Shown: positions 2,335 to 45,714 of the stretch, in pieces
Numbering within the stretch: the stretch's first letter is position 1
Layout of the letters: the number at the start of each line of letters is the position of its first letter
Source of the DNA: Lachnospiraceae bacterium
Lineage (GTDB): Bacteria; Bacillota; Clostridia; Lachnospirales; Lachnospiraceae
NCBI GenBank assembly: GCA_017542245.1
Contig: JAFXXN010000016.1
Location: forward strand, 25,711 to 89,710
Direction of reading: 5' to 3'
Length of the DNA: 64,000 nucleotides
Program-made: the position numbers and the translations under genes
Notes under the pieces: generated by a model
Seen by the model: only the letters and a program-made list of their open reading frames with translations
Databases searched by the model: none
What the model was told of the DNA's origin: nothing

Positions 2335-3075
2335 ATGAAGAAATTTTTAGTTTTACTTTTAGCACTTGCTATGGTTGTGTCTCTTGCAGCATGCAGCAAG
2401 AAAGAAGAAAAGGACATTTTTGCTAAGTCAGAGGGTGTTATGACATATGCTCAGTATGATGCAGCAAATGTAGATGATCCTGTTACCGTAGAGACCTTCG
2501 TACAGGACAAGCAGTCATGGTGGGATAACAAAGCTACCATCTACACACAGGACAAGGATGGTGCTTACTTCATTTATGAGATGCAGTGCTCAGAGGCAGA
2601 TTACGCTAAGCTTGTTAAGGGCCAGAAGATCAGAGTAAAAGGATTTAAGGCTGATTTCCAGGGTGAAAAGGAAATAGCAGATGCAACATTTGAAATCCTT
2701 GACGGAAATTACGTAGCTCCGGCTACCGATGTCACAAGCTTACTCGGGAAAGACGAACTTGTTAAATATCAGAACAGATTCGCTGAGTTCAAGGGTATGA
2801 CAGTTGCAGCAAGCAAGGATGCCGATGGTAATGATGCAGCTTTCCTTTACAAGTGGAACGGCAGCGGTCAGGAAGGCGATGACCTCTATTTCAATGTAGA
2901 GCTTAACGGAAACGTATACACATTCACAGTTGAGTCTTATCTTTGCGGTAAGGATACTGAAGTATACAAAGCAGTAAAAGAACTTAAGATTGGTGAAAAG
3001 ATTGATCTTACAGGATACCTTTACTGGTATGATACTGTAAATCCCCATATCATTTCTGTAACAGCAGCTAAATAA
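2335..3075 (+). CDS. lipoprotein of unknown function
   Basis: I chose the internal ATG at 2335, which is preceded by AGAGGA. The N-terminus MKKFLVLLLALAMVVSLAAC is a classic lipoprotein signal. The longer ORF from 2197 has no SD and a non-signal N-terminus. Confidence 0.6.
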   Translation: MKKFLVLLLALAMVVSLAACSKKEEKDIFAKSEGVMTYAQYDAANVDDPVTVETFVQDKQSWWDNKATIYTQDKDGAYFIYEMQCSEADYAKLVKGQKIRVKGFKADFQGEKEIADATFEILDGNYVAPATDVTSLLGKDELVKYQNRFAEFKGMTVAASKDADGNDAAFLYKWNGSGQEGDDLYFNVELNGNVYTFTVESYLCGKDTEVYKAVKELKIGEKIDLTGYLYWYDTVNPHIISVTAAK

Positions 3076-4013: not shown

Positions 4014-5645
4014 ATGAAGAAACCTATAATGAAAAAAACAAGTATATTTTTTTTATGTTTTTTATTTGTTGCTTTATTAATGGGATGTACCCAAAAAGAT
4101 ACAGAAACACGTGAACTGAATATGGCTCTGTCAAGTTCTCCCATAACAATAGATGCACAACTGGTATATGATGTAAATTCAAGTATTGTCTGCAGGTTTT
4201 TTAATTCGACACTTTATGAATATAACATCGACAAAGAATTGGTTCCGGGTTTGGCAGAGAGTTATGAAATATCGGATGACGGTCTCAGATACACATTTAA
4301 ATTAAAGAAAGATCTTAAATGGAGTGATGGGAGAGCGCTTACATCCGAAGATTTTGTATTTGGTTTCAAGAGGTTTTCTGATCCGGCTGTAGGCAGTAAT
4401 GCAGTATACCTGATCACGGATTGCTGTAAGCTGAAAAATGCATCGGCTATTCTCGCAGGGGAAAAACCGTTAAGTGAGCTTGGGGTATATGCACCTGATA
4501 AATCCACATTTGTTGTAGAGTTGGAAGAGCCATGTACTTATTTTTTAGATCTTATTACCAATTGTGATTTTGCTCCATGTAATGAAGACTTTTTCCATTC
4601 GGCCGGAAAAAACTATTCTACAAGCCAGGATACAGTAATTAGTTGCGGTTCGTTTATTGTAGACAGATACGAGCCTCTTGCTACACAGATACATTTCAAG
4701 AAAAATCCATATTATTATAATTCCGATATCGTAAAATTAAGCGGTGTAAATATACAGATAATAGCAAACTCGCAGCAGGCACTTATGTGTTACGAGGCCG
4801 GAACAATCGATGTTACAGAAGTTAGCGGCGAAATACTGGAACTTGCGGAAGCAGACCCTGAACTTGAAGTATTTACCAGTGCATCGCTGTTTTATGTAAA
4901 TATTAATCAGCTGACGGGAAATTCTGTGTTAAAGAATAAAAATATCCGTATGGCACTGTCTAAGAGTATTGACAGGAAAGATATTTGTGAGAATCTTCTT
5001 AAAGCAGGAAATGTTCCGATGACAAGGATTATCCCGCCGGGATTTTATACTGAAACAGACGGAACCGATTTTTCCATAGACACTGGCAGATGTAATGAAT
5101 ATGCGGGATATGATCCGGATAAAGCCTTGGAATACTGGAAAAAAGGACTTAGTGAACTTGGAGTTTCTTCTGTAAATTTAGGTTTTCTTTTTGCTTCTGA
5201 CTATATAGCGGTTGCGGAAGCAATAGCCAATCAAATGGAAAAAAGACTCCCGGGACTTAAACTAGAGCTCAAAGGTGTTCCATTTAAGGACAGAATAGAT
5301 AAGGAAAATAGTGGTGAATATGATCTGGTGCTTACCGGATGGAATGCAGACTATTCGGATCCAACTTCTTTCCTTGCATTATTCTATACATCAGACAGCA
5401 ATCATTCATATACAAATGAGGAATATGACAGTGCCTATGCATTGGCCGGAAGCATGGAGATGTCAAAAAATCCGGACGAGAGAAATAAGGTGCTGCATAA
5501 AGTTGAGGATATTATCATGGAAGATGCCGGAGTAATACCGGTATATACAAAAGGCAAGACATATCTTATTCGTGAGTTTGTATCCGGATTCCAGACGCCG
5601 CCTACCGGTGTCGGAGTGATCGTAGCCGGAATTAAGGTCGACTAA
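4014..5645 (+). CDS. oppA: peptide ABC transporter substrate-binding lipoprotein (family 5, OppA/DppA-like), copy 1
   Basis: SD AAGGAG lies 9 nt upstream. Lipobox LMGC. The length (543 aa) and motifs (WSDG, YNADYSDP-like GWNADYSDP) fit family-5 SBPs. Confidence 0.85.
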   Translation: MKKPIMKKTSIFFLCFLFVALLMGCTQKDTETRELNMALSSSPITIDAQLVYDVNSSIVCRFFNSTLYEYNIDKELVPGLAESYEISDDGLRYTFKLKKDLKWSDGRALTSEDFVFGFKRFSDPAVGSNAVYLITDCCKLKNASAILAGEKPLSELGVYAPDKSTFVVELEEPCTYFLDLITNCDFAPCNEDFFHSAGKNYSTSQDTVISCGSFIVDRYEPLATQIHFKKNPYYYNSDIVKLSGVNIQIIANSQQALMCYEAGTIDVTEVSGEILELAEADPELEVFTSASLFYVNINQLTGNSVLKNKNIRMALSKSIDRKDICENLLKAGNVPMTRIIPPGFYTETDGTDFSIDTGRCNEYAGYDPDKALEYWKKGLSELGVSSVNLGFLFASDYIAVAEAIANQMEKRLPGLKLELKGVPFKDRIDKENSGEYDLVLTGWNADYSDPTSFLALFYTSDSNHSYTNEEYDSAYALAGSMEMSKNPDERNKVLHKVEDIIMEDAGVIPVYTKGKTYLIREFVSGFQTPPTGVGVIVAGIKVD

Positions 5646-5724
5646 GGCGTTTTTGAGGTGACATTGACGAAGATTATAAGAAATTTATAAAAGCATAAAT
5701 GCAATTATAGGAGGGAATGATTTC

Positions 5725-6807
5725 ATGAGTGATAAAGCCCGGGTAGTTATTGAAGCGAAGAATCTGGATATTTCTTTTAAAATGCCTACCGGAAATGTGC
5801 ATGCACTAAGAGGAGTAAATTTTACACTGAGAGAAAATGAAGTTCTTGCGCTGGTAGGAGAATCCGGTTGCGGAAAAAGTATTACCGCAAAAACGATTAT
5901 GGGTATTCTTCCTGAGAATGGAATTATTAATTCCGGAGAAGTTATCTTTAATGACGGAAAAGAATCTATTGACCTATTGACTAAAAAAACATCATGGAGA
6001 CGGAAAAACATTAACGGATCGAAGATATCCATGATATTTCAGGATCCCATGACTTCACTTAATCCGACCATGACCATTGGGTCACAGTTGATCACTTCCA
6101 TAAGAAATCATGAAGAGGTTTCAAAAAAAGAGGCTTACTCAAGGTCTCTTGAATTATTATATGAAGTTGGAATAACAGATCCTGCAAGGACAATGGAGCA
6201 ATACCCTCATCAGCTCTCAGGAGGTATGAGACAGAGGATAGTAATTGCTATAGCTTTATCCTGCAATCCAAAGGTTATTATTTGTGATGAGCCTACGACA
6301 GCGCTCGATGTAACCATTCAGAACAGAATACTGGAACTTATCCAGAAAATTCAGAGGACCAGAGGTATATCGGTAATATTTATTACTCATAATCTGGGCG
6401 TAGTAGCCAAGATTGCAGATTATGTCGGCGTTATGTATGCCGGAAAGATTATTGAATACGGAAATATTTTTGATATATTCTTCGATCCAAAACATCCGTA
6501 TACATGGGGACTTCTTTCCGCAGTCCCTGATGTTTCCGATGAAAAGGGAGATTTGTATTCCATACCCGGAACCCCTCCAAATCTTGCTCAGGAAATAGTG
6601 GGGGATGCATTTGCTCCGAGAAATCCTTATGCGCTTGAAATTGATTTTAAGGCAGAGCCGCCGATGTTCAAAGTATCGAATACACATTATGTAGCATCAT
6701 GGCTTATGGATGAACGTGCACCGAAGGCTGAGATGCCTGAAACTCTGAAAGAGAGAATAGCGCAGATGAAGAAGGAGGGATTATTCTATGTCGAAAGCGA
6801 AGAATAA
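5725..6807 (+). CDS. oppD: oligopeptide ABC transporter ATP-binding protein
   Basis: Walker A GESGCGKS, signature LSGGMRQR, Walker B ICDEPTTALD, and the Opp-type C-terminal extension. Confidence 0.9.
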   Translation: MSDKARVVIEAKNLDISFKMPTGNVHALRGVNFTLRENEVLALVGESGCGKSITAKTIMGILPENGIINSGEVIFNDGKESIDLLTKKTSWRRKNINGSKISMIFQDPMTSLNPTMTIGSQLITSIRNHEEVSKKEAYSRSLELLYEVGITDPARTMEQYPHQLSGGMRQRIVIAIALSCNPKVIICDEPTTALDVTIQNRILELIQKIQRTRGISVIFITHNLGVVAKIADYVGVMYAGKIIEYGNIFDIFFDPKHPYTWGLLSAVPDVSDEKGDLYSIPGTPPNLAQEIVGDAFAPRNPYALEIDFKAEPPMFKVSNTHYVASWLMDERAPKAEMPETLKERIAQMKKEGLFYVESEE

Positions 6808-9459: not shown

Positions 9460-10394
9460 TGGCCAGATATATAGGAAAAAGAATATTGATAGCAATCGTT
9501 ACGATGCTTGTTATCCTGCTGATCCTGTTCCTCTTATTACAGCTCATGCCGGGATCACCGTTTAACGATGAAAAGCTTTCAGCTGAGCAGGTTGCTGTGC
9601 TAAAGGAAAAATACGGACTTGACAAACCCGTAATAGTACAGTTCTTCCAATATGTAAAGAATATGCTAAAAGGAGATCTTGGAGTAAGCTATGCATTATC
9701 TCCGGATACTCCGATAACGGATCTTATTGTTAACCGCTTTCCTGTTATGCTAAAGCTCGGTTTCTTTGGAATGCTGGTGGGAACACTTGCAGGAATGCTT
9801 CTGGGATTCCTTACGGCTTTCTTCAAGAATAAAGTACTGAATGTAATCTATAACATACTCACCCTTTTGGGAATTGCAGTTCCTTCGTATCTATTCGCTA
9901 TGTTCTTTTCATATTACTTGGGATACAAGGGAAAGCTTCTGCCGTTACTTTATGATTTCCGTTCACCGGTAAGTTCGTCAATCATGGCCGTAGTTGCCAT
10001 GAGTCTTGGAGTAATGGCTGTTATAGCAAGGTTCTCAAAGGCAGAGGCATCTGATGTTATGAAGTCGGATTATGTACTGTTTGCAAAGTGCCAGGGACTG
10101 TCAAACGGGACAACGATATTAAAATATGTACTTAAGAATTCAATGATGCCCGTCATCACTGTAATGGCCAGCCTCTTAGTAAGTCTTCTTACGGGATCGC
10201 TGGTTATAGAGCAGATGTTTTCAGTTCCCGGTGTCGGCGGTCTGCTGACCAATGCAATATCGGTTAATGACTACAGTGTCGTAATAGCATTAAGCTTTAT
10301 TTATTCGGTTTTGTATATTGTTGTAATGTTGATACTTGATATTATGTACTGCGTAATCGATCCGCGTGTACGTCTTGGCGGAAAGCCGGAGTAA
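9459..10394 (+). CDS. oppB: peptide ABC transporter permease
   Basis: Six-TM profile. The OppB/DppB-type N-terminus is MARYIGKRILIAIVTMLVILLILFLLLQLMPGSPF. Its start overlaps the upstream stop. Confidence 0.9.
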   Translation: MARYIGKRILIAIVTMLVILLILFLLLQLMPGSPFNDEKLSAEQVAVLKEKYGLDKPVIVQFFQYVKNMLKGDLGVSYALSPDTPITDLIVNRFPVMLKLGFFGMLVGTLAGMLLGFLTAFFKNKVLNVIYNILTLLGIAVPSYLFAMFFSYYLGYKGKLLPLLYDFRSPVSSSIMAVVAMSLGVMAVIARFSKAEASDVMKSDYVLFAKCQGLSNGTTILKYVLKNSMMPVITVMASLLVSLLTGSLVIEQMFSVPGVGGLLTNAISVNDYSVVIALSFIYSVLYIVVMLILDIMYCVIDPRVRLGGKPE

Positions 10395-36670: not shown

Positions 36671-36848
36671 TTTTGGTTGACTGATTTTTGGTAGTTAAAA
36701 AGATAGTAGTAAAATGCAACTGTAAATTCAACATACATTTATTAATATAGCATTATTTGTATACACAATTAACACAATTAATGTGAAGAAATCCGAAAAA
36801 AAGCTTGACAATAGCGAAAAAATATTGTAAAATACTTACACTGAATTT

Positions 36849-36874
36849 GAAGTGCCTCTCACAGCACTTCTTTT
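36849..36874 (+). terminator. hairpin with T-run (possible terminator of the LicD gene or attenuator)
   Basis: GAAGTGC-CTCTCACA-GCACTTC followed by TTTT. Confidence 0.4.
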
Positions 36875-36963
36875 CATCTAATGTCGCAGCTGTTTCTGCT
36901 TCATATTTCTTGAATGTGCCGTACTCACAGGAAAAAAATATGAAAAAGTTATAGATGCGGTAT

Positions 36964-36990
36964 TAAGTTTTCTTTCAACAGAGCCGATAT
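36964..36990 (+). promoter_or_regulatory. sigma-28-type promoter upstream of the secreted-protein expression site
   Basis: TAAG-15 nt-GCCGATAT, the same architecture as flagellin P2. It lies 264 nt upstream of the ATG at 37254. Confidence 0.6.
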
Positions 36991-37244
36991 ATGTATTGTA
37001 ACGAGTATAATAAAAATACTCGGGACATTCATGGTGACTGTTGAATGTGAGACGCTTTACTCGCAAGAAAACGTAAATGAGATTGAGATACGTGCTTATT
37101 CTCACTCGAATGGATTCGCACACAGTCCGCTGTATGAATCTTAGTTGACTGGAACCGTACACCAGACAGATAAGAAGATTACAAATCTCAATGTCGTGTG
37201 TTCAAGGATGGACACAGGCAGGATAACCCACATACACAAGGAGG

Positions 37245-37309
37245 TAAAAATTTATGAAGCATTTTAAACTTATGAAGGGCGTGCTTGCATGCCTTTTATC
37301 ACTGGCACT
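37245..37309. repeat. IR-L: 65-bp arm of a perfect inverted repeat (pre-ATG spacer, ATG and 56 nt of signal-peptide coding)
   Basis: It is the exact reverse complement of 42487-42551, which I verified base by base. Identity drops sharply on both sides. Confidence 0.95.
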
Positions 37310-39248
37310 GGTGATTTCATGTTTTGGATATGCCGGAGTAAAGGCAGATGATCCTGAACCTACTACACCAGAAACCACAACAGAAGCTGAAAAGTTTGAT
37401 ATTACGGTAACTGCACCTGATTGCGTTAAACTTACAGGTACAGATGGTAAAGATTTAGGATTAACCGGTATTGCAAAAGATACCGATGTTTCATTTAAAG
37501 TAGTTATCAGTGAAGCTACAAAGCAGCTTAAAAGCGTAAAAGCTGGAGATACAGAATTAGAGGCTGCACAAGGCGTTTACACTGTAAAGGTTTCAGCTGC
37601 TGTTACTATTACAGTTGAAGTTGAAGACGTTCCTGTGACAGCAGAATATATTGCTGCTACAGATACTGTTAAGTTTACTTCTAGCGTTGCTGGAAAGGTT
37701 TTATATGCAACAGTAAAGAAAGCTGGAGCTAAAGTTACTAAAACTAGCGAAGTTGAACTTAAGGCAGATGAGAATGATGCTACTAAATTTGTTGCTGAAA
37801 TAGTTCTTAACAACAAAGATGGTGGAGTTAAAGTAGCAGAAGATAAAGATCTGTATCTTTGGTATGGATTTTCAGCTCCTGATAAGAAAGCTACCGTAAA
37901 ACCTCTCCTTACAGTTGATGGAACAAAAGTTAAGAAACTTAATGTGGTTCTTAATTATGCCGTTGCTGGTACTGATAAGTGTGCTATAGCAAGTGCAACT
38001 GCAAAGATAGGCAAGGCAGAATCAGTTGTTGATCTTGCAACACTTCAGTATCGTTATTTCGATGGAAATGCTTGGGGTGAATGGACAGATGTAGTTAAAG
38101 CTACGGCTACAACTACAGAGCCCACCACAACTACTGAGACTCCTGAAGAAGTTACCGGTAATGGAACTGACGATGGAGAAGCTACTACCGATGGTGAAGG
38201 TGAGACAACAGCAACTGTAGAGTATAATTTCACCGGTAAAGTACTTGAAACCGCAGTTAACGCAGCAGCAGAAGGAAAGCCCGCTTTTGAAATCAAAGTT
38301 AAAGCTTCCGCAGCTGTTGAAGCTGTAGAAGCTTCTGAAGGCGTAGAAGCTGTTGAAGGTAAGAACGCAGTTCGTGGTTCTAAGGCAGCAAAGATTACTG
38401 TTAAGAAAGCCGGAGAACTTAAGGCAGTTAAAGTCGACTACGTTAAGGGAACAATCGCTATTAAGAACGGTTTTGATTATGCAGTTATGACAGAGGCTGG
38501 TAAAACTCCCACAGCTGAGGATTGGAATACAGTTCTTCCTTTCAAGAAGGGTGGCACAGCTACTGCAGATATAAAGACTGTAGATTATGTTCCGGCTAAG
38601 AAGGTTAGTACTGATACTGCAGCTATGTTCGCTAAGGAGAAAGTTTCTAGCAAGAACATCAGCGACCTTTTAGGCGAGAATGATACAATTTATGTATATG
38701 TAAGGAAGTCTGCAACAACTAAGGCTCCTGCATCTAAAGCATGTGAAGTAATTACTATCAAGAAGCCTGCAGCAGCTCCTGCATTCACAACTCAGAGTAT
38801 CGAAGGAACTAAGGGTAAGAAGGGTTGGAGTTATGTTCTTACAGCTCCCGAAGCTCTTACAGGTGGAGATTATGAATATCTGATCGTTAAGGCAGATGCT
38901 GATCTTACCAAGATATCAGGCGCTAAGTGGTCTAAGCTTAATGCAAAAGGAATTAAGTTAGGTAGCAAGTCTAAGATTGATAAGTCTACTACTTATACAC
39001 TTGCAGCAGACGGAAATTACTGGATTCTTATCAGAAAAGCAGCTGTTAAGAAGGGCGATAACGCAGCTTTAGCTTCTGAGTATGTTAAGACTTTAGTTGG
39101 AAAACCTGTAGATGGCGGAACAACTGAGGCTCCTACTTCTACTATCTCTTGGAGTGTAGTTACAGAAGAGGCTCCTGCAGAAGAAACACCTACAGAAACA
39201 CCTACTGAAGGTACTGATCCTGCAACTGAAGGAACTGACAATCCTTAA
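37254..39248 (+). CDS. secreted protein A (664 aa), expressed-site copy of a paralogous pair
   Basis: Consensus SD AAGGAGG and signal peptide MKHFKLMKGVLACLLSLALVISCFGYAGVKA. It has Thr/Pro/Glu-rich linkers. The C-terminal module is shared with 39825-42542 and 57163-59793. Confidence 0.85.
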   Translation: MKHFKLMKGVLACLLSLALVISCFGYAGVKADDPEPTTPETTTEAEKFDITVTAPDCVKLTGTDGKDLGLTGIAKDTDVSFKVVISEATKQLKSVKAGDTELEAAQGVYTVKVSAAVTITVEVEDVPVTAEYIAATDTVKFTSSVAGKVLYATVKKAGAKVTKTSEVELKADENDATKFVAEIVLNNKDGGVKVAEDKDLYLWYGFSAPDKKATVKPLLTVDGTKVKKLNVVLNYAVAGTDKCAIASATAKIGKAESVVDLATLQYRYFDGNAWGEWTDVVKATATTTEPTTTTETPEEVTGNGTDDGEATTDGEGETTATVEYNFTGKVLETAVNAAAEGKPAFEIKVKASAAVEAVEASEGVEAVEGKNAVRGSKAAKITVKKAGELKAVKVDYVKGTIAIKNGFDYAVMTEAGKTPTAEDWNTVLPFKKGGTATADIKTVDYVPAKKVSTDTAAMFAKEKVSSKNISDLLGENDTIYVYVRKSATTKAPASKACEVITIKKPAAAPAFTTQSIEGTKGKKGWSYVLTAPEALTGGDYEYLIVKADADLTKISGAKWSKLNAKGIKLGSKSKIDKSTTYTLAADGNYWILIRKAAVKKGDNAALASEYVKTLVGKPVDGGTTEAPTSTISWSVVTEEAPAEETPTETPTEGTDPATEGTDNP

Positions 39249-39322
39249 TATAATTGATGTATAACCGATTATTAAAGAAGTCATAGCATTGTTTGTAATT
39301 ATAAGTTATAGACTTATTGTTT

Positions 39323-39433
39323 AGCCAGTGATATGAAATGATTCATGGCCCCTAGAGGAGAAATCCTTTAGGGGTTTCTTTTTGCTCTAATCTATGGAGC
39401 ATTTAATAAAAAAAGTTGCCTTTCCGGCAACCC
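39323..39433 (+). repeat. terminator module copy 1 (T1 hairpin 39349-39374 with T-run; T2 hairpin 39415-39431)
   Basis: T1 is CCCCTAGAGGA-GAAA-TCCTTTAGGGG followed by TTTCTTTTT. T2 is GTTGCC-TTTCC-GGCAAC flanked by A/T runs. The module is repeated at 43873-43980, and T1 alone is inverted at 39711-39770. Confidence 0.85.
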
Positions 39434-39454
39434 TGCGATATTTCCATATTCAAT

Positions 39455-39655
39455 TCAAATCTTGAATAATCTTTTAACCGAAACGCTCCCTTTCACTCCT
39501 GCTAAAAAAATTGGAAAAAGCAAGAGCAAGTCAGGAAAGCTAATAAAACCAATATATAAAATGAAATAATCTCTAAAAACATATTTATTTTCTAATATCG
39601 GCAGTTTAAAGCTATACTCTTTACCTTTGATGACATAATAATACAACACGGCAGA
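39455..39655 (-). pseudogene. remnant of a GH10 xylanase gene 3' end, interrupted
   Basis: On the minus strand, GGAGCGTTTCGGTTAAAAGATTATTCAAGATTTGA and GTCATCAAAGGTAAAGAGTAT resemble the last roughly 75 nt of the xylanase gene at 45764. The same T2 hairpin follows. Confidence 0.55.
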
Positions 39656-39710
39656 CAGTTTGTTAATGAGAAAATTATTAATAACCAGTCAATCAAAAAA
39701 GTTCCTGCAA

Positions 39711-39770
39711 TAGAAAAACCCCTAAAGGATTTCTCCTCTAGGGGTCATGAATCATTTCATATCACTGGCT
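39711..39770 (-). repeat. terminator module T1, inverted copy 2 (terminator of secreted protein B)
   Basis: It is the reverse complement of 39323-39380 with a 1-nt difference. The hairpin is at 39719-39744, with a T-run on the minus strand. Confidence 0.85.
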
Positions 39771-39824
39771 TTGTATTACTTAATTGCCTTTATGATTTTT
39801 AATTCATTATCCAATGTTACCAGA

Positions 39825-42542
39825 TTATGAATTAATTTCCCATGCATAACCGTCAACTTGCTCTTTATCAACAGTTATCTTAACAGCTGTAACCTTTGTT
39901 ACAAGTACTTCTGAAGGAAGAACGCCCTTCTTCTTGTCGCCTGCACGTCTGATAAGAATGAGGCAATCTGTTCCAAGAGTAGCGTCTTTACTTTCTGTTC
40001 CAACAACGTACTTTGACTTGGTCTTATCAACTGTAAGAGTCTTACCTGCTACAAGCTTGCCCCACTTAGAAGCTGCATAGTCAACCTTACCTAAGTCTTC
40101 TGCCTTGATGATAAGATATTCATAACTAGCAGTATTCTTATCGGTTGCATCATTGCTGATAGTAGGTATTGTGAATGCAGTTCCTTTGTCAGATTTAACT
40201 GCTTCTGCATACTTGCCTTCAGCATCCTTAAGGGATTTAAGTGCAGGAGCTGCAGTAGCCTTGTCAATCTTAACTGCAGTTGAAGCTGCTGATGCAGGCT
40301 TACCATCTGCTGCTGACTTTCTTACAAATACATAGATGCTATTAGGAACGTTTTCTGATGTTCCTTTAGCTGCAGTAAAGAGATCTGCAATGCTTATGGA
40401 TTTAATCTTCTTGCTTGTAAAGTAAGCTGCTGATGTCTCTGCAAACTTCTTTGTAGGAACAAAGTCAGAAGTTGCAATTGTATATGTTTCATTCTTGCTT
40501 TCCTTATTGAAAGGAAGGATTGTTATCCAGTCACTAGGTTCAGGAGTCGCACCTTCTTCAGTAAGAACTGCATAATCATATCCGTTCTTAATAGCGATGG
40601 TTCCCTTAACACCGTCTACCTTAACCTTGGGAGCCTTAGCTGCTTTCTTAACACTAGCCTTAGCTGCCTTTGTGTTACGATAAGCTACTTCTGTATCTGT
40701 AGCAGAAGCACCTGTAAGTCTGAACTGAATCTTAGGAGCTTTCTTTTCAAGTGTCCAGCCATAAAGCTTTTCACCAGTAAGTTTTCCGTTATCCTTTACT
40801 TCTGTAAGAGTTATTGTTCCAGCAGCAGTAATATTTTCACCGCTCTTAAGCTTAACCTCTGCACCAGAAACCAGATTGTACTTAACCTGTGTTTTAGTTA
40901 TGGTGATAGTTTTGCCTGCAGCCGCAGTACCTTTTGTTAAAGTGATTTCATCAGGCATAACAGTAGTTGTCATGTTATCACCATTCATTAAATACCAACC
41001 TGCATCACGATGTGCTGTTGTAACTTCACCAGTTGTTTCATCTTTTACTTCCGCTACTTCGTCAGAATACTTATATACTACATTCTCACTATCAGAAGAA
41101 TAATCAGCTGCGATTGTCACTTCACCATTATCAACCGTGGTTGCACCCGAATAAGTGTACTCTGCCGGGCTAGGTGTATAAGTCCACTTGTTATCAGCAA
41201 AGGTATATGCACCTGCTGCTAACTTACTGATATCTTTAATAGTAACTGACTCTACAACTTCAGCTGCAGTATCATCGAGTGCATAGTTATAACCAACTAA
41301 TACTTCCTGATCAGCGGAACCGTTAACCTTAAGCCATGTTTTACCATTGTCAACGCTATACTGAAGCGAACCAGTAATTGTAGCCCATTCTTCAGAATCA
41401 GTTGTATAAGTCTTAGCTTCTCCAGATGCAGGAGTAACAACAACGCTTGCTATAGCTAAAACGTTAACGCCTTTATCAGCCTTAGCATAATTGAAGTTAA
41501 CTGCTAATTTCTTATAAGAGGTAGCCTTAACAGTTACATTTGCATCAAAGGTCTGTCCTTTTTCAGGTTTAACAGCACCTACAAGAACACAAAGGTATGT
41601 ATCCTTGTTTTCTGCAACACTAACACCAGCCTTCTTATTATTAAGAGCGATAGTAGCCATCTTGTCATCACCGGTCTTAACATTAGCAAATTTGCTAACC
41701 TTATTACCTGAAGCTGCTTTAACCAATGCATAACTGATAGTTACATCTTTAACTGCTGTTTCGATTACAACTGAATCTTTTGAAGGATCATAAGTGATAC
41801 CTTCGATAGCAGCTGTAGCTACGTTATTTCCAATCGCAACATCTTCACTCTTATATTCAGCAGTATAATCCTGTTCAAACTTATATTCAGCAGAATTAAC
41901 ATCAACATTGTTAATCTTTGTAAGAACTACATTCTCAGCTGCAAGTGATTTTGCATTCTCGCCTTCGCCATTAACAGCTGCAGCGATGATTTCAGCTGCT
42001 GTAAATGAAACCTTCTTTGTAGTAACATTAAGATTATCTACAGGGAATTTAGCAGTATATTCTACTGTGGGATTTCCATAATTAATAGTAAATACATAAT
42101 TGATTTTCTTAGGAACAGCGGTAATAGCTATTGCAACATCTGCTATAGTTACACCATCATCTGTCTCTGCCTGTTTTTTGATTGTAAACTCATTGGTTGT
42201 AGTATTATAAGCAATAGCTGCATCATCTGCTCCAATAGCTGCAGAGCCCTTTTTTACGTCTGTAACTATTATTCCATCAGCATAATTATCATCTATTGAC
42301 TTATTAGCTGCTTTTGCGTTTTTTGTTATATCCGCTAAAGAAACCTTTACATCTGCTGTTGCATCTTGGTTTTTAGCAACTTCATAAGTATAAGCTACAG
42401 AATTAATAGTTACCGTAAAAGTTGTCTTTGCGGTTCCCTTATCAGTAGCAGCTTTTGCTCCGATATTACCAAAACACGTTACAACGAGTGCCAGTGATAA
42501 AAGGCATGCAAGCACGCCCTTCATAAGTTTAAAATGCTTCAT
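39825..42542 (-). CDS. secreted protein B (905 aa), promoter-less/SD-less paralog of protein A
   Basis: Its first 19 codons are identical to protein A. AGAAAGT stands in place of an SD. Blocks homologous to protein A include VKGTIAIKNGYDYAV, IYVFVRKSAADGKPAS and YEYLIIKA. Confidence 0.85.
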   Translation of the reverse strand: MKHFKLMKGVLACLLSLALVVTCFGNIGAKAATDKGTAKTTFTVTINSVAYTYEVAKNQDATADVKVSLADITKNAKAANKSIDDNYADGIIVTDVKKGSAAIGADDAAIAYNTTTNEFTIKKQAETDDGVTIADVAIAITAVPKKINYVFTINYGNPTVEYTAKFPVDNLNVTTKKVSFTAAEIIAAAVNGEGENAKSLAAENVVLTKINNVDVNSAEYKFEQDYTAEYKSEDVAIGNNVATAAIEGITYDPSKDSVVIETAVKDVTISYALVKAASGNKVSKFANVKTGDDKMATIALNNKKAGVSVAENKDTYLCVLVGAVKPEKGQTFDANVTVKATSYKKLAVNFNYAKADKGVNVLAIASVVVTPASGEAKTYTTDSEEWATITGSLQYSVDNGKTWLKVNGSADQEVLVGYNYALDDTAAEVVESVTIKDISKLAAGAYTFADNKWTYTPSPAEYTYSGATTVDNGEVTIAADYSSDSENVVYKYSDEVAEVKDETTGEVTTAHRDAGWYLMNGDNMTTTVMPDEITLTKGTAAAGKTITITKTQVKYNLVSGAEVKLKSGENITAAGTITLTEVKDNGKLTGEKLYGWTLEKKAPKIQFRLTGASATDTEVAYRNTKAAKASVKKAAKAPKVKVDGVKGTIAIKNGYDYAVLTEEGATPEPSDWITILPFNKESKNETYTIATSDFVPTKKFAETSAAYFTSKKIKSISIADLFTAAKGTSENVPNSIYVFVRKSAADGKPASAASTAVKIDKATAAPALKSLKDAEGKYAEAVKSDKGTAFTIPTISNDATDKNTASYEYLIIKAEDLGKVDYAASKWGKLVAGKTLTVDKTKSKYVVGTESKDATLGTDCLILIRRAGDKKKGVLPSEVLVTKVTAVKITVDKEQVDGYAWEINS

Positions 42543-42551
42543 AAATTTTTA
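42487..42551. repeat. IR-R: 65-bp arm of the perfect inverted repeat
   Basis: It is the exact reverse complement of 37245-37309. Confidence 0.95.
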
Positions 42552-42627
42552 ACTTTCTACAATCTGATATATAATTGTGGTATAAGTATATAAAAATTTT
42601 CAATACAAAAGAAAGGAATTGAGAAGC

Positions 42628-43620
42628 ATGAAAAAATCAGATGAAAGAGAAGTGAAAAGATTGAAGTTTAAGGATCAGGTGGATTTTTTTCTAGAGGACA
42701 AGAAATGCTTTTTGGCTGATGGTACGATTCTGAACTATCAACGTGACCTGAATAGAGCATGCGCGGTATTTGGAGATATATTTATAGATGATATTTCATA
42801 TCTGGAAATAAAAAAGTATTTTGTCGATCTTCAGAATAATGGAATTAACATGTACACAGGAAAAAGACTTAAATCGGGAACGATCATGCAGCACTATATC
42901 ACGCTTCATTCATTCTTTGAGAATGCTGTAGAAAATGGTATTCTTACTGAAAATCCAATGAGAAGGTTGAAAAGACCGAAAAGCAGGAAAGACGAAGAGT
43001 TAAAACCTGTCATTTCATATGATGAAAAACAGGTACATTATATTTTATCATGTTTGAATCTGGAGCCCTTAAAATGGAAAGCTTTGATAATGGTGGCTAT
43101 TGATAGTGGATGTAGATGTGGAGAACTGATGGGACTTAAATGGACAGATATTGATTTTGAGTCCGGAAGGATGAACATTGTAAGAAATATTCAATATACA
43201 CCTGAAAAAGGAATATTTGTATGTACGCCAAAGAATGGAAAAAGTAGGGAAATATATCTGAACGGACCGGTGATAGCGATTCTTAAAGAATGGAAGAAAA
43301 TCAGCAATATAGGTAAAACAGAAAAGTCTAACGAGTACTGTTTTACCGGGAGAAATAATCAGCCTATGATGCCTGGGTGCTTTAACGCTTTTCTTCGCCG
43401 TTTTGGAAAGAAGTATAATCTTAAAGGAATACATCCCCATGCCCTTAGGCATAGTATGGCTTCGATAAGCCTTGTTCATGGGGCAGATATTGTCAGCGTT
43501 TCGAAAAAGCTTGGGCACTCCAATGTTTCCATAACATTAAATGTTTACAGCCATACAAACTTTGAGGCACAGCTTAGGGCTAATGAAGTTTTTGCGGGGG
43601 CTGTATATAATAAAGAGTGA
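42628..43620 (+). CDS. tyrosine site-specific recombinase (XerC/D-integrase family), candidate invertase
   Basis: Catalytic signature GCRCGEL (Arg), HPHALRHS (HxxR) and LGHSNVSITLNVYSH (His..Tyr). An SAM-like N-domain is present. The ATG at 42628 follows GAAAGGA; an alternative TTG lies at 42619. Confidence 0.9.
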   Translation: MKKSDEREVKRLKFKDQVDFFLEDKKCFLADGTILNYQRDLNRACAVFGDIFIDDISYLEIKKYFVDLQNNGINMYTGKRLKSGTIMQHYITLHSFFENAVENGILTENPMRRLKRPKSRKDEELKPVISYDEKQVHYILSCLNLEPLKWKALIMVAIDSGCRCGELMGLKWTDIDFESGRMNIVRNIQYTPEKGIFVCTPKNGKSREIYLNGPVIAILKEWKKISNIGKTEKSNEYCFTGRNNQPMMPGCFNAFLRRFGKKYNLKGIHPHALRHSMASISLVHGADIVSVSKKLGHSNVSITLNVYSHTNFEAQLRANEVFAGAVYNKE

Positions 43621-43676: not shown

Positions 43677-43723
43677 TATAATTTACTTAATCGTTGAAAA
43701 TTTTAAGGATTAAGTAGATTATA
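43677..43723. repeat. palindrome P1: TATAATTTACTTAATC-N15-GATTAAGTAgATTATA
   Basis: 16-bp arms with one mismatch and a 15-bp spacer. It is related to P2 and P3. Confidence 0.85.
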
Positions 43724-43872
43724 ATTGCTTCTTTATAAAAATTACTTAACATTAACCAATGAAGCTCATGATCAAACTTATGTCGCTTGGTAAGAATGAT
43801 GATGTAATCAAGGTTTCCAGTGATGTTGATTATAGGGAAAAAATGTATACGATGTACGGTATTAAATAAAAA

Positions 43873-43980
43873 CCAGTGCTATGAAATGATTCATGGCCCC
43901 TGGAGGAGAAATCCTTTAGGGGTTGCTTTTTGCTCTAATCTATGGAGCATTTAATAAAAAAAGGTTGCCTTCCGGCAACC
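43873..43980 (+). repeat. terminator module copy 3 (T1 43897-43922; T2 43963-43980)
   Basis: It is a direct repeat of 39323-39433 with a few substitutions. T2 read on the minus strand terminates the ATPase gene. Confidence 0.85.
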
Positions 43981-44038
43981 TTGAAAAATTATCATATTTC
44001 TCTGATAGTCAGAAACTAATGACTTCATTTCTCCATAG

Positions 44039-45460
44039 TTAGAATGCAAACAGATCATCCAGGATAACAACTGAGGGAAACCTATCTGAATAAGAATTTT
44101 TAATCAGACCATATGTAGTTATTAATGTCGGGAATATTGCATATCGGGCTCCGGCTTGAATCTTAACATCATTTATTTTTTTACAAATATCTTCATCATA
44201 TTTTTTGGTAACGGTAAATTGGGTTCCGGAGTATTTTATCTCGCAAAGATTTATAACCATATCTTTTCTGATTATAAGCAGGTCTATCTGAGAACCCAAA
44301 ATCCCCTTGTTCAAATCTTCTTTACAATACCATGAACAAATTTCTGAGTTTACGCCCATTATACTGAGTTTGCTTTTAATCTGTTCGATATGGTCAAAGC
44401 ATATGCGTTCAAAAGCCAGACCATGCCAAGTATTTGTTTTGGGCTCATTTATCTGATTTGTCCAGAAATGTTCATCTGTTGGGTTGTTTTTTAAAAAACG
44501 CAAATAGAACAATGTGAAACAATCTATAAGCTGGTAAACAGAGTTTTTCTTGGCATTTCCAAATGCTTTATATTTTCTAATAAATCCACAGTTTTCGAGT
44601 TCATTCAATTTTTTTGATAAATCACCGGAATTCACTATACCGGATGCCTCGATCAGTTCCTCTCGCGTCATGCCCACTTTCTTTGTGCCAAGAGTCTCTA
44701 TTATATTAAGATATACTTCAGGGTTTTTGAATATTGAAGCATAAAGATATTCATACTCATCTTTTAAAGGCGCTTCCTTTGCAAAAAGTATATTATCAAT
44801 ATTCTGTGCAAGACTGAAGCCTTTTTTGATAAAACTCCAATAGTATGGAATCCCGCCAAAAATCATGTAATACTGTAAAATCTGTTCACGGTTCATTGTT
44901 AATCCCATGGATTCTATATATGTCTCACATTCTTTCAAGGAGAAAGAAGACAAATGAATCTGATCTGTTAAACGATGGTAAAGACCGCCTTTATTATGGA
45001 TGACTTCTGAAATCATCCAAGAGGTTGCAGATGCACATATTATAAGAAGTACATCTTTTCTGGCAGAAGCAAATCCGTTCCAAAAATTTTCTATAGCTGA
45101 TATTAAATTACTCTTGGGGGTATCCATCCATGACAATTCATCTATGAAGATGACTTTTTTCTTTTCATTTGAATTCCTGATAACGTCTTTTAAACCTTCA
45201 AAAGCCTCAAGCCAGTTCTTAGGGGGCTTTTCGAATTTGTATCCGGAATCTTTCAGTGAAGATACAAATTCAAATATCTGGTCTTTCATAGTTCCGCGAC
45301 TTAACCCGGCATGCTGAAATGTAAAACGATATCCAAAAACTTCTCTTATAAGGAATGTTTTCCCTATTCTTCTTCGGCCATAGACTGCAACAAATCTCGA
45401 TTCTTTGGCATTAAGGGCGTTCTTTAGTATTTCGGTTTCTTTTTTTCTCTCTATAAGCAT
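44039..45460 (-). CDS. ATP-binding protein (archaeal-type AAA ATPase domain plus DUF234-like C-terminus)
   Basis: Walker A GRRRIGKT and Walker B VIFIDELSWMD. The length and layout fit the Arch_ATPase/DUF234 family. Confidence 0.8.
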   Translation of the reverse strand: MLIERKKETEILKNALNAKESRFVAVYGRRRIGKTFLIREVFGYRFTFQHAGLSRGTMKDQIFEFVSSLKDSGYKFEKPPKNWLEAFEGLKDVIRNSNEKKKVIFIDELSWMDTPKSNLISAIENFWNGFASARKDVLLIICASATSWMISEVIHNKGGLYHRLTDQIHLSSFSLKECETYIESMGLTMNREQILQYYMIFGGIPYYWSFIKKGFSLAQNIDNILFAKEAPLKDEYEYLYASIFKNPEVYLNIIETLGTKKVGMTREELIEASGIVNSGDLSKKLNELENCGFIRKYKAFGNAKKNSVYQLIDCFTLFYLRFLKNNPTDEHFWTNQINEPKTNTWHGLAFERICFDHIEQIKSKLSIMGVNSEICSWYCKEDLNKGILGSQIDLLIIRKDMVINLCEIKYSGTQFTVTKKYDEDICKKINDVKIQAGARYAIFPTLITTYGLIKNSYSDRFPSVVILDDLFAF

Positions 45461-45479
45461 AACTCAGTCTCCGTGTAAT

Positions 45480-45526
45480 TATAATTTACTTAATCGTAGA
45501 AAAATTTTAAGATTAAGTAAATTATA
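45480..45526. repeat. palindrome P2: TATAATTTACTTAATC-N15-GATTAAGTAAATTATA (perfect)
   Basis: Perfect 16-bp arms. The right arm supplies the minus-strand TATAAT of the ATPase promoter candidate. Confidence 0.9.
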
Positions 45527-45549: not shown

Positions 45550-45575
45550 GCATATTGTTATGTAAATTGAAAAAT

Positions 45576-45620
45576 ATAAGTTACTTAATCTATCAAAAAA
45601 TCATTGATTAAGTAACTTAT
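45576..45620. repeat. palindrome P3: ATAAGTTACTTAATC-N15-GATTAAGTAACTTAT (perfect)
   Basis: Perfect 15-bp arms with the same 10-bp core and 15-bp spacer as P1 and P2. Confidence 0.9.
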
Positions 45621-45714
45621 AATTGCTTCCTTATAAAATATGCTTGACATTAACTAATGAAGCTCGTGGTCAAACTTTTTGCCAATCAATGGAACGGGTT
45701 TTCGACTGAAAAAA

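Follow-up and report, generated by a model that had tools for sequence, protein, structure and literature searches.

Since the 1990s, the S-layer genes of Lactobacillus and the lipoproteins of Mycoplasma have provided examples of switching by DNA inversion around a single expression site. Campylobacter fetus has alternative surface-layer (sap) genes with a conserved 5' region and a single promoter, of which one is expressed at a time via inversion; there the promoter-bearing segment inverts, the shared 5' region spans hundreds of base pairs, and the process is RecA-dependent. In Lactobacillus acidophilus, slpA and slpB are two opposed, paralogous genes for major secreted surface proteins, with a single active promoter outside the invertible segment, and inversion moves the silent gene to the expression site (Boot et al. 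1996, via the review PMC3666127). According to that review, only 0.3% of chromosomes in culture are in the silent orientation. A long leader precedes the expressed gene.

In the vsa locus of Mycoplasma pulmonis, which encodes its own tyrosine recombinase, HvsR, a fixed promoter, ribosome-binding site, and 5' coding part (714 nt) are joined to one of many silent bodies by crossover within the coding sequence; the products are tandem-repeat lipoproteins, and HvsR acts on a second (hsd) locus too (PMC2268961). The vpma genes of M. agalactiae (recombinase Xer1) and the vsp genes of M. bovis (Mbr) have one promoter and silent genes that share a 5' UTR and signal peptide, with switching by the adjacent tyrosine recombinase proven by knockout and complementation; their sites lie in the 5' UTR (-1 to -72), and whole ORFs are swapped (PMC2268961). 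Shufflon-type, "partial intergenic," or gene-altering inversions are exemplified by Bacteroides SusC/SusD and type I R-M hsdS genes (Milman et al. 2023, PMC9881135; PhaVa, 10.1101/2023.03.11.532203), and in most described cases it is C-terminal specificity domains or SusC N-termini that are swapped.

Here, we describe a locus in a 64-kb stretch of DNA from a rumen Lachnospiraceae bacterium (the window, meaning the whole stretch analysed) that is likely to be a two-cassette, single-expression-site switch for phase or antigenic variation. It resembles slpA/slpB in its Firmicute host, its two opposed paralogous genes for secreted and possibly major surface proteins, its strong promoter outside a predicted invertible segment, and the long leader of the gene at the expression site. 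The proteins belong to another family, with no sequence or Pfam relation found, and the two genes (A and B) code for no known cell-wall-binding domain. We know of no dedicated recombinase gene described beside slpB, whereas a tyrosine recombinase gene abuts the silent copy here. As in vsa, a fixed promoter, ribosome-binding site, and 5' coding part would be joined to a silent body within the coding sequence, but the fixed coding part is only 56 nt, there are two cassettes, the phylum is different, and the protein family is unrelated. One promoter, a shared signal peptide, and an adjacent tyrosine recombinase also recall vpma and vsp, although the Lachnospiraceae repeat runs from -9 to +56, taking in the ATG and most signal-peptide codons. 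Alternative surface-protein genes, a shared 5' region, a single promoter, and DNA inversion are likewise features of sap. With the gene-altering inversions the locus shares coding-overlapping inverted repeats, a recombinase nearby, alternative segments for one expressed position, and kilobase length; in contrast to them, nearly the whole mature protein would be swapped, with only the first 19 codons fixed, and the family is not among the targets named in the portions of those two sources drawn on here.

A preliminary description of the locus had known of no system of this design for this protein family. The family is indeed uncharacterised, but the design has already been described in others (slpA/slpB, vsa, vpma, and vsp). 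In kind, the putative switch is not new.

Anatomy of the locus

The features are listed in Table 1. The two 65-bp arms are exact reverse complements in a base-by-base comparison, and they cover the 9-nt spacer, the ATG, and the 56 coding nucleotides that the preliminary description had assigned to them. A repeat search places them within a longer inverted repeat (104 nt, 88% identity; 37242-37345 / 42451-42554), and identity drops immediately outside the arms at both ends, also as first described. The window contains only six inverted-repeat pairs that are 30 nt or longer, four of which fall within the putative switch locus, and a perfect 65-mer pair is far beyond chance.

Table 1. Features of the putative switch locus (window coordinates)
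Feature	Position	Strand	Remarks
Strong sigma-70-type promoter, TTGACA-17-TAAAAT	36805..36833	+	11/12 positions matched; best site of the region
Long 5' leader (~410 nt)	36841..37244	+	Start deduced from promoter position as the probable transcription start; conserved core from ~36910; outside invertible segment
Left repeat arm	37245..37309	+	Gene A -9 to +56; signal-peptide codons 1-19; 65/65 match
Gene A, 664-aa secreted protein	37254..39248	+	ORF; occupies expression site in window
Predicted invertible segment, 5177 bp	37310..42486		Both gene bodies, 3' elements, and spacer; bounded by perfect repeat
Gene A 3' UTR element	39325..39450	+	Conserved; intrinsic terminator hairpin 39347-39376
Gene B 3' UTR element	39717..39768	-	Conserved; terminator hairpin 39746-39717 (terminator scan)
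Gene B, 905-aa paralogue	39825..42542	-	ORF; leaderless, no ribosome-binding site in window orientation; predicted silent cassette
Right repeat arm	42487..42551	-	Gene B -9 to +56; 65/65 reverse complement of left arm
Spacer, 76 nt, right arm to recombinase ATG	42552..42627	+	TATAAT-like box and AAAGGAA; presumed recombinase promoter and ribosome-binding site
Tyrosine recombinase, presumed invertase	42628..43620	+	Pfam Phage_integrase PF00589, 2e-33, residues 135-316
Third 3' element and terminator	43873..43998	+	Downstream of recombinase; direct repeat of 39325-39450, 126 nt, 90%

The products of genes A and B have a common N-terminus (MKHFKLMKGVLACLLSLAL), with 84% identity by BLASTP over residues 1 to 31, 40% in a 235-aa C-terminal block, and 38% in a 141-aa block; the ORF list and BLASTP bear out both reading frames, their distant paralogy, and the shared motifs quoted earlier. 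Neither product matches Pfam or NCBIfam, and no SLH, CWB2, or Lactobacillus-type anchoring module that would place them among S-layer proteins was found in these searches. An AlphaFold2 model of the gene A product (pLDDT 81) has an N-terminal helix, a disordered linker, and beta-sandwich domains with generic FN3/Ig-like matches only in PDB. The family is uncharacterised, and its folds are Ig/FN3-like. The mature A and B proteins have pIs of 5.0 and 5.5 and contain three and two cysteines, respectively. Family bodies are 30 to 50% identical between strains, and the many gene-sized contigs of the family are the sole hint at product abundance; the family is apparently hypervariable and highly expressed, and in rumen Lachnospiraceae its products may be a major surface protein or one that resembles S-layer proteins.

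The expression site is present only once. As the preliminary description had it, only the plus-strand copy has the AAGGAGG ribosome-binding site, the ~410-nt leader, and the strong promoter, and AGAAAGT stands at the equivalent site of the minus-strand copy; the hexamers 5' of gene B (TTGAAA-18-CACAAT) are weakly promoter-like. The promoter hexamers are conserved in locus L004, and the 3' end of the leader consists of GGA-rich sequence and the AAGGAGG. Mean column identity of the leader is 79% over seven loci whose coding bodies have only 30 to 50% amino acid identity. RNAalifold predicts 63 leader pairs, with compensatory changes in nine, and the leader has no match in Rfam. The block of leader and signal peptide is ~80 to 95% conserved between species, single-copy loci included. 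The earlier argument that perfect conservation of the repeat implies a selected recombination substrate is therefore weakened for the expressed copy, and it is the conservation of the leaderless copy alone that argues for such a substrate.

Either gene body would be properly equipped at its other end. Hairpins follow both genes, at 39347-39376 (+) and 39746-39717 (-), in agreement with the claim of the same terminator after each body, and the 52-nt element holding them is identical at 51/52 bases between the A and B copies. The motif CAGTGnnnTnAAATGATTCA is also present 3' of the family gene at L004, L018, L025, and L026. We also note a third copy of the 3' element, at 43873-43998, which the preliminary description had overlooked.

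In our model, the promoter, leader, and consensus ribosome-binding site would be the fixed parts. The two convergent paralogues begin with the same perfect 65-bp stretch in inverted orientation, made up of the first 19 signal-peptide codons and the 9 nt ahead of the ATG. Recombination between the arms would invert 37310-42486, such that the fixed promoter, leader, and start would serve either the A body (664 aa, the state in the window) or the B body (905 aa). The gene away from the site would have no leader or ribosome-binding site and would adjoin the recombinase gene, and the two proteins would be expressed in a mutually exclusive manner. Each body would bring along a 3' UTR and a terminator. 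The catalyst would most likely be the adjacent tyrosine recombinase, acting at a core site within the arms. What would be exchanged are large secreted multidomain beta-sandwich proteins, and switching might alter the exposed surface, for example in evasion of recognition by phage, host, or predator.

The recombinase and its distribution

The divergent gene beyond the minus-strand copy codes, as first proposed, for a tyrosine recombinase (76 nt between the repeat end at 42551 and its ATG at 42628; Pfam, 2e-33), and its translation has the motifs GCRCGE, HPHALRH, LGHS, and VYSH, corresponding to the R...HxxR...H/W...Y signature. It falls below the cut-offs for XerC/XerD (TIGR02224, 109.6 bits against 335; TIGR02225, 103.5 against 329.6) and for FimB/FimE-type invertases (NF007370, 33.6 bits against 221), and it is similar to integrases such as Tn1549 Int (PDB 6emy, E 2e-13). 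The 76-nt spacer has weak promoter-like matches on both strands and may contain the recombinase promoter and ribosome-binding site. A site-specific recombinase nearby (here 76 nt from the right arm) and inverted repeats that overlap coding sequence (here -9 to +56 in both genes) are characteristic of gene-altering programmed inversions, and the recombinase is the presumed invertase.

In a second species (L019/L021), an orthologous recombinase of 65% identity is likewise divergent and similarly spaced from its neighbour, a leaderless family gene whose homology to the expression site starts at GGTAAAAATTTATG, at nearly the same base as in the window. Recombinase and leaderless second copy are thus found together in two species. 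At three loci where the family gene is single-copy (L004, L018, and L026), the leader and signal peptide are the same, but there is neither a recombinase nor an inverted repeat.

These distributions bear on the possibility that inversion is real but is RecA-dependent homologous recombination, the recombinase being unrelated, perhaps a remnant integrase of a module bearing gene B. A tyrosine-recombinase core site needs ~30 bp, and the 65 bp of perfect identity exceeds this, has no clear internal dyad (the best is 12/16 bases), and could also reflect gene conversion or exchange of the RecA type. Repeated gene conversion yields such a perfect stretch with decay at its edges. The inversion of C. 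fetus sap is a RecA-dependent precedent, and the 126-nt, 90% direct repeats around the spacer, gene B, and recombinase suggest that this block arrived as a unit. However, RecA-mediated exchange is inefficient over 65 bp in many Firmicutes, the catalytic motifs of the recombinase are intact, its ortholog occupies the same divergent position in the second species, and where there is no second copy there is no recombinase. We consider RecA-driven inversion unlikely and favour catalysis by the adjacent enzyme.

The same direct repeats (39325-39450 and 43873-43998) could instead enclose a mobile "silent cassette" module of recombinase and gene B, for which integration or exchange at the 5' and 3' handles is primary and inversion a side reaction. 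The resemblance of the recombinase to Tn1549 Int agrees with this, as does the occurrence, in many strains, of the same 5' block (leader and signal peptide) and 3' motif around gene bodies that differ greatly. Site-specific integration, however, leaves direct and not inverted repeats at the site of the recombinase itself, neither circular forms nor empty sites nor a second integration were observed, and the module is in two species only. We judge it very improbable that mobility is the primary function, and a module of this type would in any case be compatible with the two-cassette switch.

Orientation in public assemblies

The flipped junction is present in a public assembly. The first 1215 bases of the 1321-nt contig L024 (ENA ERZ28653783, no N) match the predicted flipped product at 1215/1215 positions, running from window positions 36708-37309 into the reverse complement of 42486...41874, such that promoter, leader, and repeat are joined to the gene B body; ungapped against the window orientation, the full 1321 nt have 463 mismatches. 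This supports, from a single short contig, the earlier inference that inversion of 37310-42486 swaps the body at the expression site. One of the two junctions proposed as a check, 37309 joined to revcomp(42486...), is therefore in hand; the reciprocal one, joining the recombinase side to the gene A body, was not found. Five further contigs of this strain, which come from four additional samples (L001, L002/L017, L003, and L023), are in the window orientation, and all long contigs have this one orientation. Both orientations are thus recorded, the flipped state from L024. Scans of JGI metagenomes and GTDB genomes for the flipped junction gave nothing, which is a weak null in that gene B is recorded only in ENA and NCBI.

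The locus could also be static, with A and B ordinary paralogues maintained by family-wide 5' conservation and occasional gene conversion, B weakly expressed from a promoter of its own or unexpressed, and L024 a chimera formed through the repeat. The last 106 nt of L024 match nothing in the window or the fetched loci, no protein homologue, and no viral contig, leaving one end of the contig, at least, unexplained and at least one junction dubious. A de Bruijn assembler with k below 65 could in principle misjoin across the repeat, and the start of scaffold L023, from the same study as L024, at 37255, 55 nt ahead of the inner end of the left arm, suggests k = 55, shorter than the repeat. Breaks of assemblies at the repeat, on the other hand, count in favour of the switch: L023 starts there, Logan contigs end at 42522 or exactly at 42487, and the L019 contig ends 31 codons into the family gene. 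The cross-species conservation of the 5' block at single-copy loci, the weak promoter-like hexamers upstream of B, and the uniform long contigs accord with a static locus as well.

Yet a chimera would require both correct junction k-mers to be missing, and L024 is gapless and free of mismatches over the 1215 nt. The B copy retains only -9 to +56, with no leader or ribosome-binding site, and the second species has the same cut-off; conservation driven by expression does not explain this recurrence. Gene B is also an intact open 2.7-kb frame, which is unlikely to persist if never translated, and the recombinase accompanies the second copy. A B-like homologue, P0063, is fused to the conserved leader in another organism, showing that B-like bodies are able to occupy an expression site. 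Counting against the switch, the silent copy in L003 has an in-frame 42-nt deletion that removes the signal-peptide core, which would not be expected were B constantly selected. On balance we find a static locus unlikely, and the two-cassette switch remains the reading we prefer.

Implications

A broader and speculative idea, which we do not think probable, is that the 5' block (leader plus the first ~85 coding nt) and the 3' UTR motif are universal handles of a cross-species cassette system serving a dominant surface protein of rumen Lachnospiraceae. A mobile module of recombinase and promoterless cassette would insert beside a resident gene, flip the bodies, and perhaps capture new ones, and the new structured leader RNA might be CsrA/FliW-controlled with the flagellar regulon. 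If so, whole surface proteins would be handled much as in a hybrid of integron and shufflon.

The two-cassette switch itself reveals no new principle; if correct, it would be a clear and probably active case of whole-protein phase variation in rumen Lachnospiraceae, in which, to our knowledge, almost no phase variation has been studied by experiment. For annotation, gene B looks normal and yet is probably silent in the window orientation, and assemblies of such loci are prone to break at the repeat. Junction reads would make both orientations trackable in rumen metagenomes, and the selective agent acting on gut commensals, whether phage, protozoal grazing, or host antibody, could thereby be addressed.

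Architecture of the A/B locus

Open reading frames A and B are convergent, and the exact inverted repeat that the preliminary description placed at their 5' ends is present: the two arms are reverse complements at 65 of 65 positions, spanning 9 nt before the ATG and 56 coding nt of each gene. A mismatch lies one base beyond the outer end of the repeat, and further upstream the two sides are unrelated; at the inner end a weaker similarity extends to about +92, and a repeat-finding tool gives 104-nt arms with 88% identity. The 64-kb window contains six pairs of inverted repeats 30 nt or longer, four of which fall in the A/B locus, and a search of viral contigs with the 65-bp repeat gave no match. 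A and B are distant paralogs, as had been claimed, with 84% identity over residues 1 to 31, 40% over a 235-aa C-terminal block, and 38% over a 141-aa central block. The sequence AAGGAGG, a long leader, and the best regional promoter match precede A alone, again as described, with AGAAAGT ahead of B, which is an intact 2.7-kb open frame.

Features of the A/B locus and its surroundings (window coordinates unless a contig is named)
Feature	Position	Strand	Remarks
Promoter	36805-36833	+	TTGACA-17-TAAAAT, best match in region
Leader (conserved)	36910-37253		
Leader, L004 (related locus)	9650-10000		
Leader, L018 (related locus)	5930-6283		
Leader, L026 (related locus)	2560-2916		
Repeat, left arm	37245-37309		65 bp
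A	37254-39248	+	ORF, 664 aa
Predicted movable segment	37310-42486		
3' UTR element copies	39325-39450, 39717-39768, 43873-43998		motif CAGTGnnnTnAAATGATTCA, then GC hairpin
Spacer ORF	39455-39649	-	64 aa, hydrophobic
B	39825-42542	-	ORF, 905 aa
Repeat, right arm	42487-42551		65 bp
Tyrosine recombinase	42628-43620	+	330 aa, divergent from B
AT-rich palindromic element	43677-43726, 45477-45526, ~45575-45677		~48 nt, TTATAATTTACTTAATCGTTGAAAATTTTAAGGATTAAGTAGATTATAA
ATPase_2/DUF234 gene	44039-45460	-	

We consider it likely that inversion of the segment between the arms operates a switch at a single expression site and that this explains the locus as a whole, and our confidence that the segment inverts at all is somewhat higher. 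The fixed part would run from the promoter through a leader of ~410 nt and the ribosome-binding site to the ATG and at most 19 codons; the movable part would carry the bodies of both genes, and each would bring its own 3' UTR and terminator. A crossover within the repeat would thus place the body of either A or B behind the fixed part, leaving the other gene silent and adjoining the recombinase gene.

The claim that each gene has its own terminator holds, the same 52-nt element ending in a hairpin being found after A and after B, and its motif and hairpin also follow family genes in other species. A third, longer copy, which the preliminary description overlooked, lies downstream of the recombinase gene; it is 126 nt long, 90% identical to the copy after A, and in direct orientation relative to it. 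Because these direct repeats bracket the spacer, gene B, and the recombinase gene, there is a hint that this block arrived by insertion as a unit. A blastn comparison of the A-B spacer and the region past the recombinase with the other loci gave no match. The 338-nt spacer between the convergent 3' elements contains a small ORF without a family match, which would invert together with the segment. We also note that copies of an AT-rich palindrome flank the ATPase_2/DUF234 gene on both sides.

Orientation in public assemblies

Orientation was surveyed in all public contigs encoding exactly A, B, members of the B cluster, or the recombinase. The window orientation is shared by five contigs or scaffolds of the same strain, which come from four samples (L002/L017 from ERZ27256878, L001 from SAMN15830045, L003 from SAMN15830039, and L023 from SAMN15830042). 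The flipped orientation is found in one, L024 (ENA ERZ28653783, scaffold_237999 of SAMN15830029; 1321 nt with no N), whose bases 1 to 1215 match the predicted inverted sequence with 0 mismatches, passing from window 36708-37309 (promoter, leader, and repeat) into the reverse complement of 42486...41874, the body of B. When aligned without gaps to the window orientation, L024 diverges from position 603 on. Both flipped junctions had been proposed as a test of inversion; that joining leader, repeat, and B is thus present in L024, and the reciprocal junction was not found.

The distance of exactly 55 nt between the start of L023, a scaffold from the same study as L024, and the inner end of the left arm hints at an assembly k of 55, which is shorter than the repeat, and L024 might then represent a wrong assembly path through the repeat. 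This is unlikely, as it would need both true junctions to be absent from the graph while 1215 nt were assembled perfectly. The last 106 nt of L024 (1216-1321), which hold part of an opposite-strand ORF, match nothing in the window, the fetched loci, the proteins, or the viral contigs, and may mark an insertion within gene B in that population, or else a chimeric end of the contig. Assemblies break at the repeat in L023, L030 to L032, and L019, which fits the presence of the repeat and possibly a mixed population, and proves nothing alone.

In another organism the conserved leader runs into a B-like body, and such bodies can therefore occupy an expression site. A scan of JGI metagenomes and GTDB genomes for a leader-N65-B pattern gave 0 hits; this carries little weight, since ENA and NCBI are the only sources with a record of gene B, and the JGI and GTDB collections seem not to contain the strain. 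A search in a second species for one gene body in both positions gave no evidence of another case of flipping, the body in contig L021 being only 87% identical to its nearest leader-joined relative, protein P0009. In L003, the silent B copy has a 42-nt in-frame deletion (L003 position 5684; window 42457-42498), by which the signal peptide loses its hydrophobic core and cleavage region and the right arm its innermost 11 nt. The variant may be naturally "locked" or in decay, or it may come from an assembly error.

The adjoining recombinase

The gene 76 nt from the repeat end codes for a tyrosine recombinase, as had been proposed, with a Pfam Phage_integrase match (2e-33) and catalytic motifs visible in the translation; its scores are far below the NCBIfam cutoffs for XerC/XerD and FimB/E. 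In the second species (MAG Tb.RUG.194; contigs L019/L020 and L021), a divergent recombinase 65% identical to that in the window adjoins a family gene without a leader, whose homology to the expression site begins at GGTAAAAATTTATG, no more than 3 nt from the boundary seen in the window. RecA-type exchange between the 65-bp repeats is a possible alternative to the recombinase, given that a perfect 65 bp exceeds the need of a core site and that no convincing internal dyad was found in the repeat. The recombinase accompanies a leaderless second copy in two of two cases and is absent from all three single-copy loci, which lends comparative support, short of proof, to its being the invertase. That this recombinase catalyzes the inversion is a proposal we hold with somewhat less confidence than the switch as a whole. 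We rejected a simple integrated element, as integration leaves direct repeats and the repeats here are inverted.

A conserved 5' module

All homologs found with A or B as the query begin with MKHFKLMKGVLACLLSLALV or a near variant, and their bodies are only ~30 to 50% identical. The window and six other loci share a conserved stretch made up of approximately 330 nt of leader and the first ~85 coding nt (79% mean column identity, with long invariant runs); the six include the single-copy, recombinase-less loci L004, L018, and L026. The earlier argument that perfect conservation of the repeat reflects a recombination substrate is consequently weakened for the expression-site copy, which is conserved for reasons other than inversion and could be constrained by the structure of the leader RNA, by translation initiation, or by the signal peptide. 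It still applies to the copy on the B side, which keeps only -9 to +56, without leader and ribosome-binding site, and is thus not explained by expression constraints.

An Rfam scan of the whole window gave no match, and the leader therefore falls in no known RNA family. RNAalifold predicts 63 pairs in it, nine with compensatory changes, the clearest forming a hairpin near 37000-37030, and the leader may be a new cis-regulatory or mRNA-stabilizing element. Its 3' end (37205-37246) has repeated GGA motifs (CAAGGATGGACACAGGCAGGATAACCC...ACAAGGAGG) near the ribosome-binding site that resemble CsrA sites. Just upstream of the locus are a flagellar cluster (FliW, CsrA, FlaG, FliD, FliS, FlgN, and flagellin) and a LicD-family gene, with fliW and csrA a few kb from the leader; the family genes of L004, L018, and L026 are likewise directly downstream of flagellin or flagellin-glycosylation genes.

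The wider family (proteins P0020 to P0162) has several signal-peptide types, each nearly invariant over very different bodies, such as MKHFKLMKGVLACLLSLALV and MKKFN[LF]SKGL[IV][VI]GLLT[FL]AL. Some gene calls reach back into the leader and read MDTGRITHIHKEV... or MDMGRIHNHKEV..., and the leader 3' end is therefore conserved in the second signal-peptide type too. The idea that proteins called from Met7 are silent copies was ruled out by P0063, which starts at Met7 yet is leader joined. Many independent JGI and Logan contigs (L006 to L015, the 13 contigs encoding P0012; L016; and L025) contain a single family gene each; they start 348 to 374 nt ahead of the ATG, near the predicted transcription start, and end shortly past the stop codon. 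These could be full-length metatranscriptome transcripts, in which case very high expression is implied, or assemblies interrupted at the conserved 5' and 3' modules.

The protein family and its distribution

Pfam and NCBIfam models gave no match to A or B, and among 1.84 billion representative proteins a profile search recovered only ~200 relatives at E-values up to 1e-3. The AlphaFold2 model of A (pLDDT 81, pTM 0.68) has a signal-peptide helix and a disordered Thr/Pro/Glu linker, followed by a string of beta-sandwich domains whose only PDB matches are generic FN3/Ig-like ectodomains and a bacterial adhesin. Mature A and B are weakly acidic (pI 5.0 and 5.5) with few Cys, and neither has a known wall-anchoring domain; the proteins could plausibly serve at the surface or in an S-layer-like capacity. 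A lipoprotein reading was judged less likely: VISC in A would fit a lipobox, but B has VVTC, and the invariant A-K-A at residues 29 to 31 appears to fit signal peptidase I better.

The locus is identical to ruminant gut metagenome contigs and to a MAG labeled "Lachnospiraceae bacterium" (IKP88_01665 and IKP88_01670). Among the GTDB genomes and metagenome collections searched, the system is rare, the family search of the former giving two loci only and the recombinase search of the latter only three, one of them distant. In L026, from another species, a same-strand tandem distant paralog (5427-6347) with a different signal peptide (MKHIRKIVCLLCIF...) follows the family gene, an alternative means of holding two versions without inversion.

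Relation to known switching systems

The preliminary description knew of no system of this exact design for this protein family; in other families the design is on record. The Mycoplasma vsa, vpma, and vsp systems have the same logic, with adjacent tyrosine recombinases linking silent genes to one promoter, and in vsa the crossover is inside the coding region (PMC2268961). Large inverton surveys now catalog "gene-altering" or "partial intergenic" examples by the hundreds to thousands (PMC9881135; 10.1101/2023.03.11.532203). The novelty here lies in the protein family, in the taxon and habitat, and in the position of the repeat. Because it lies across the start codon and signal peptide of both genes, inversion would exchange nearly the whole mature protein.
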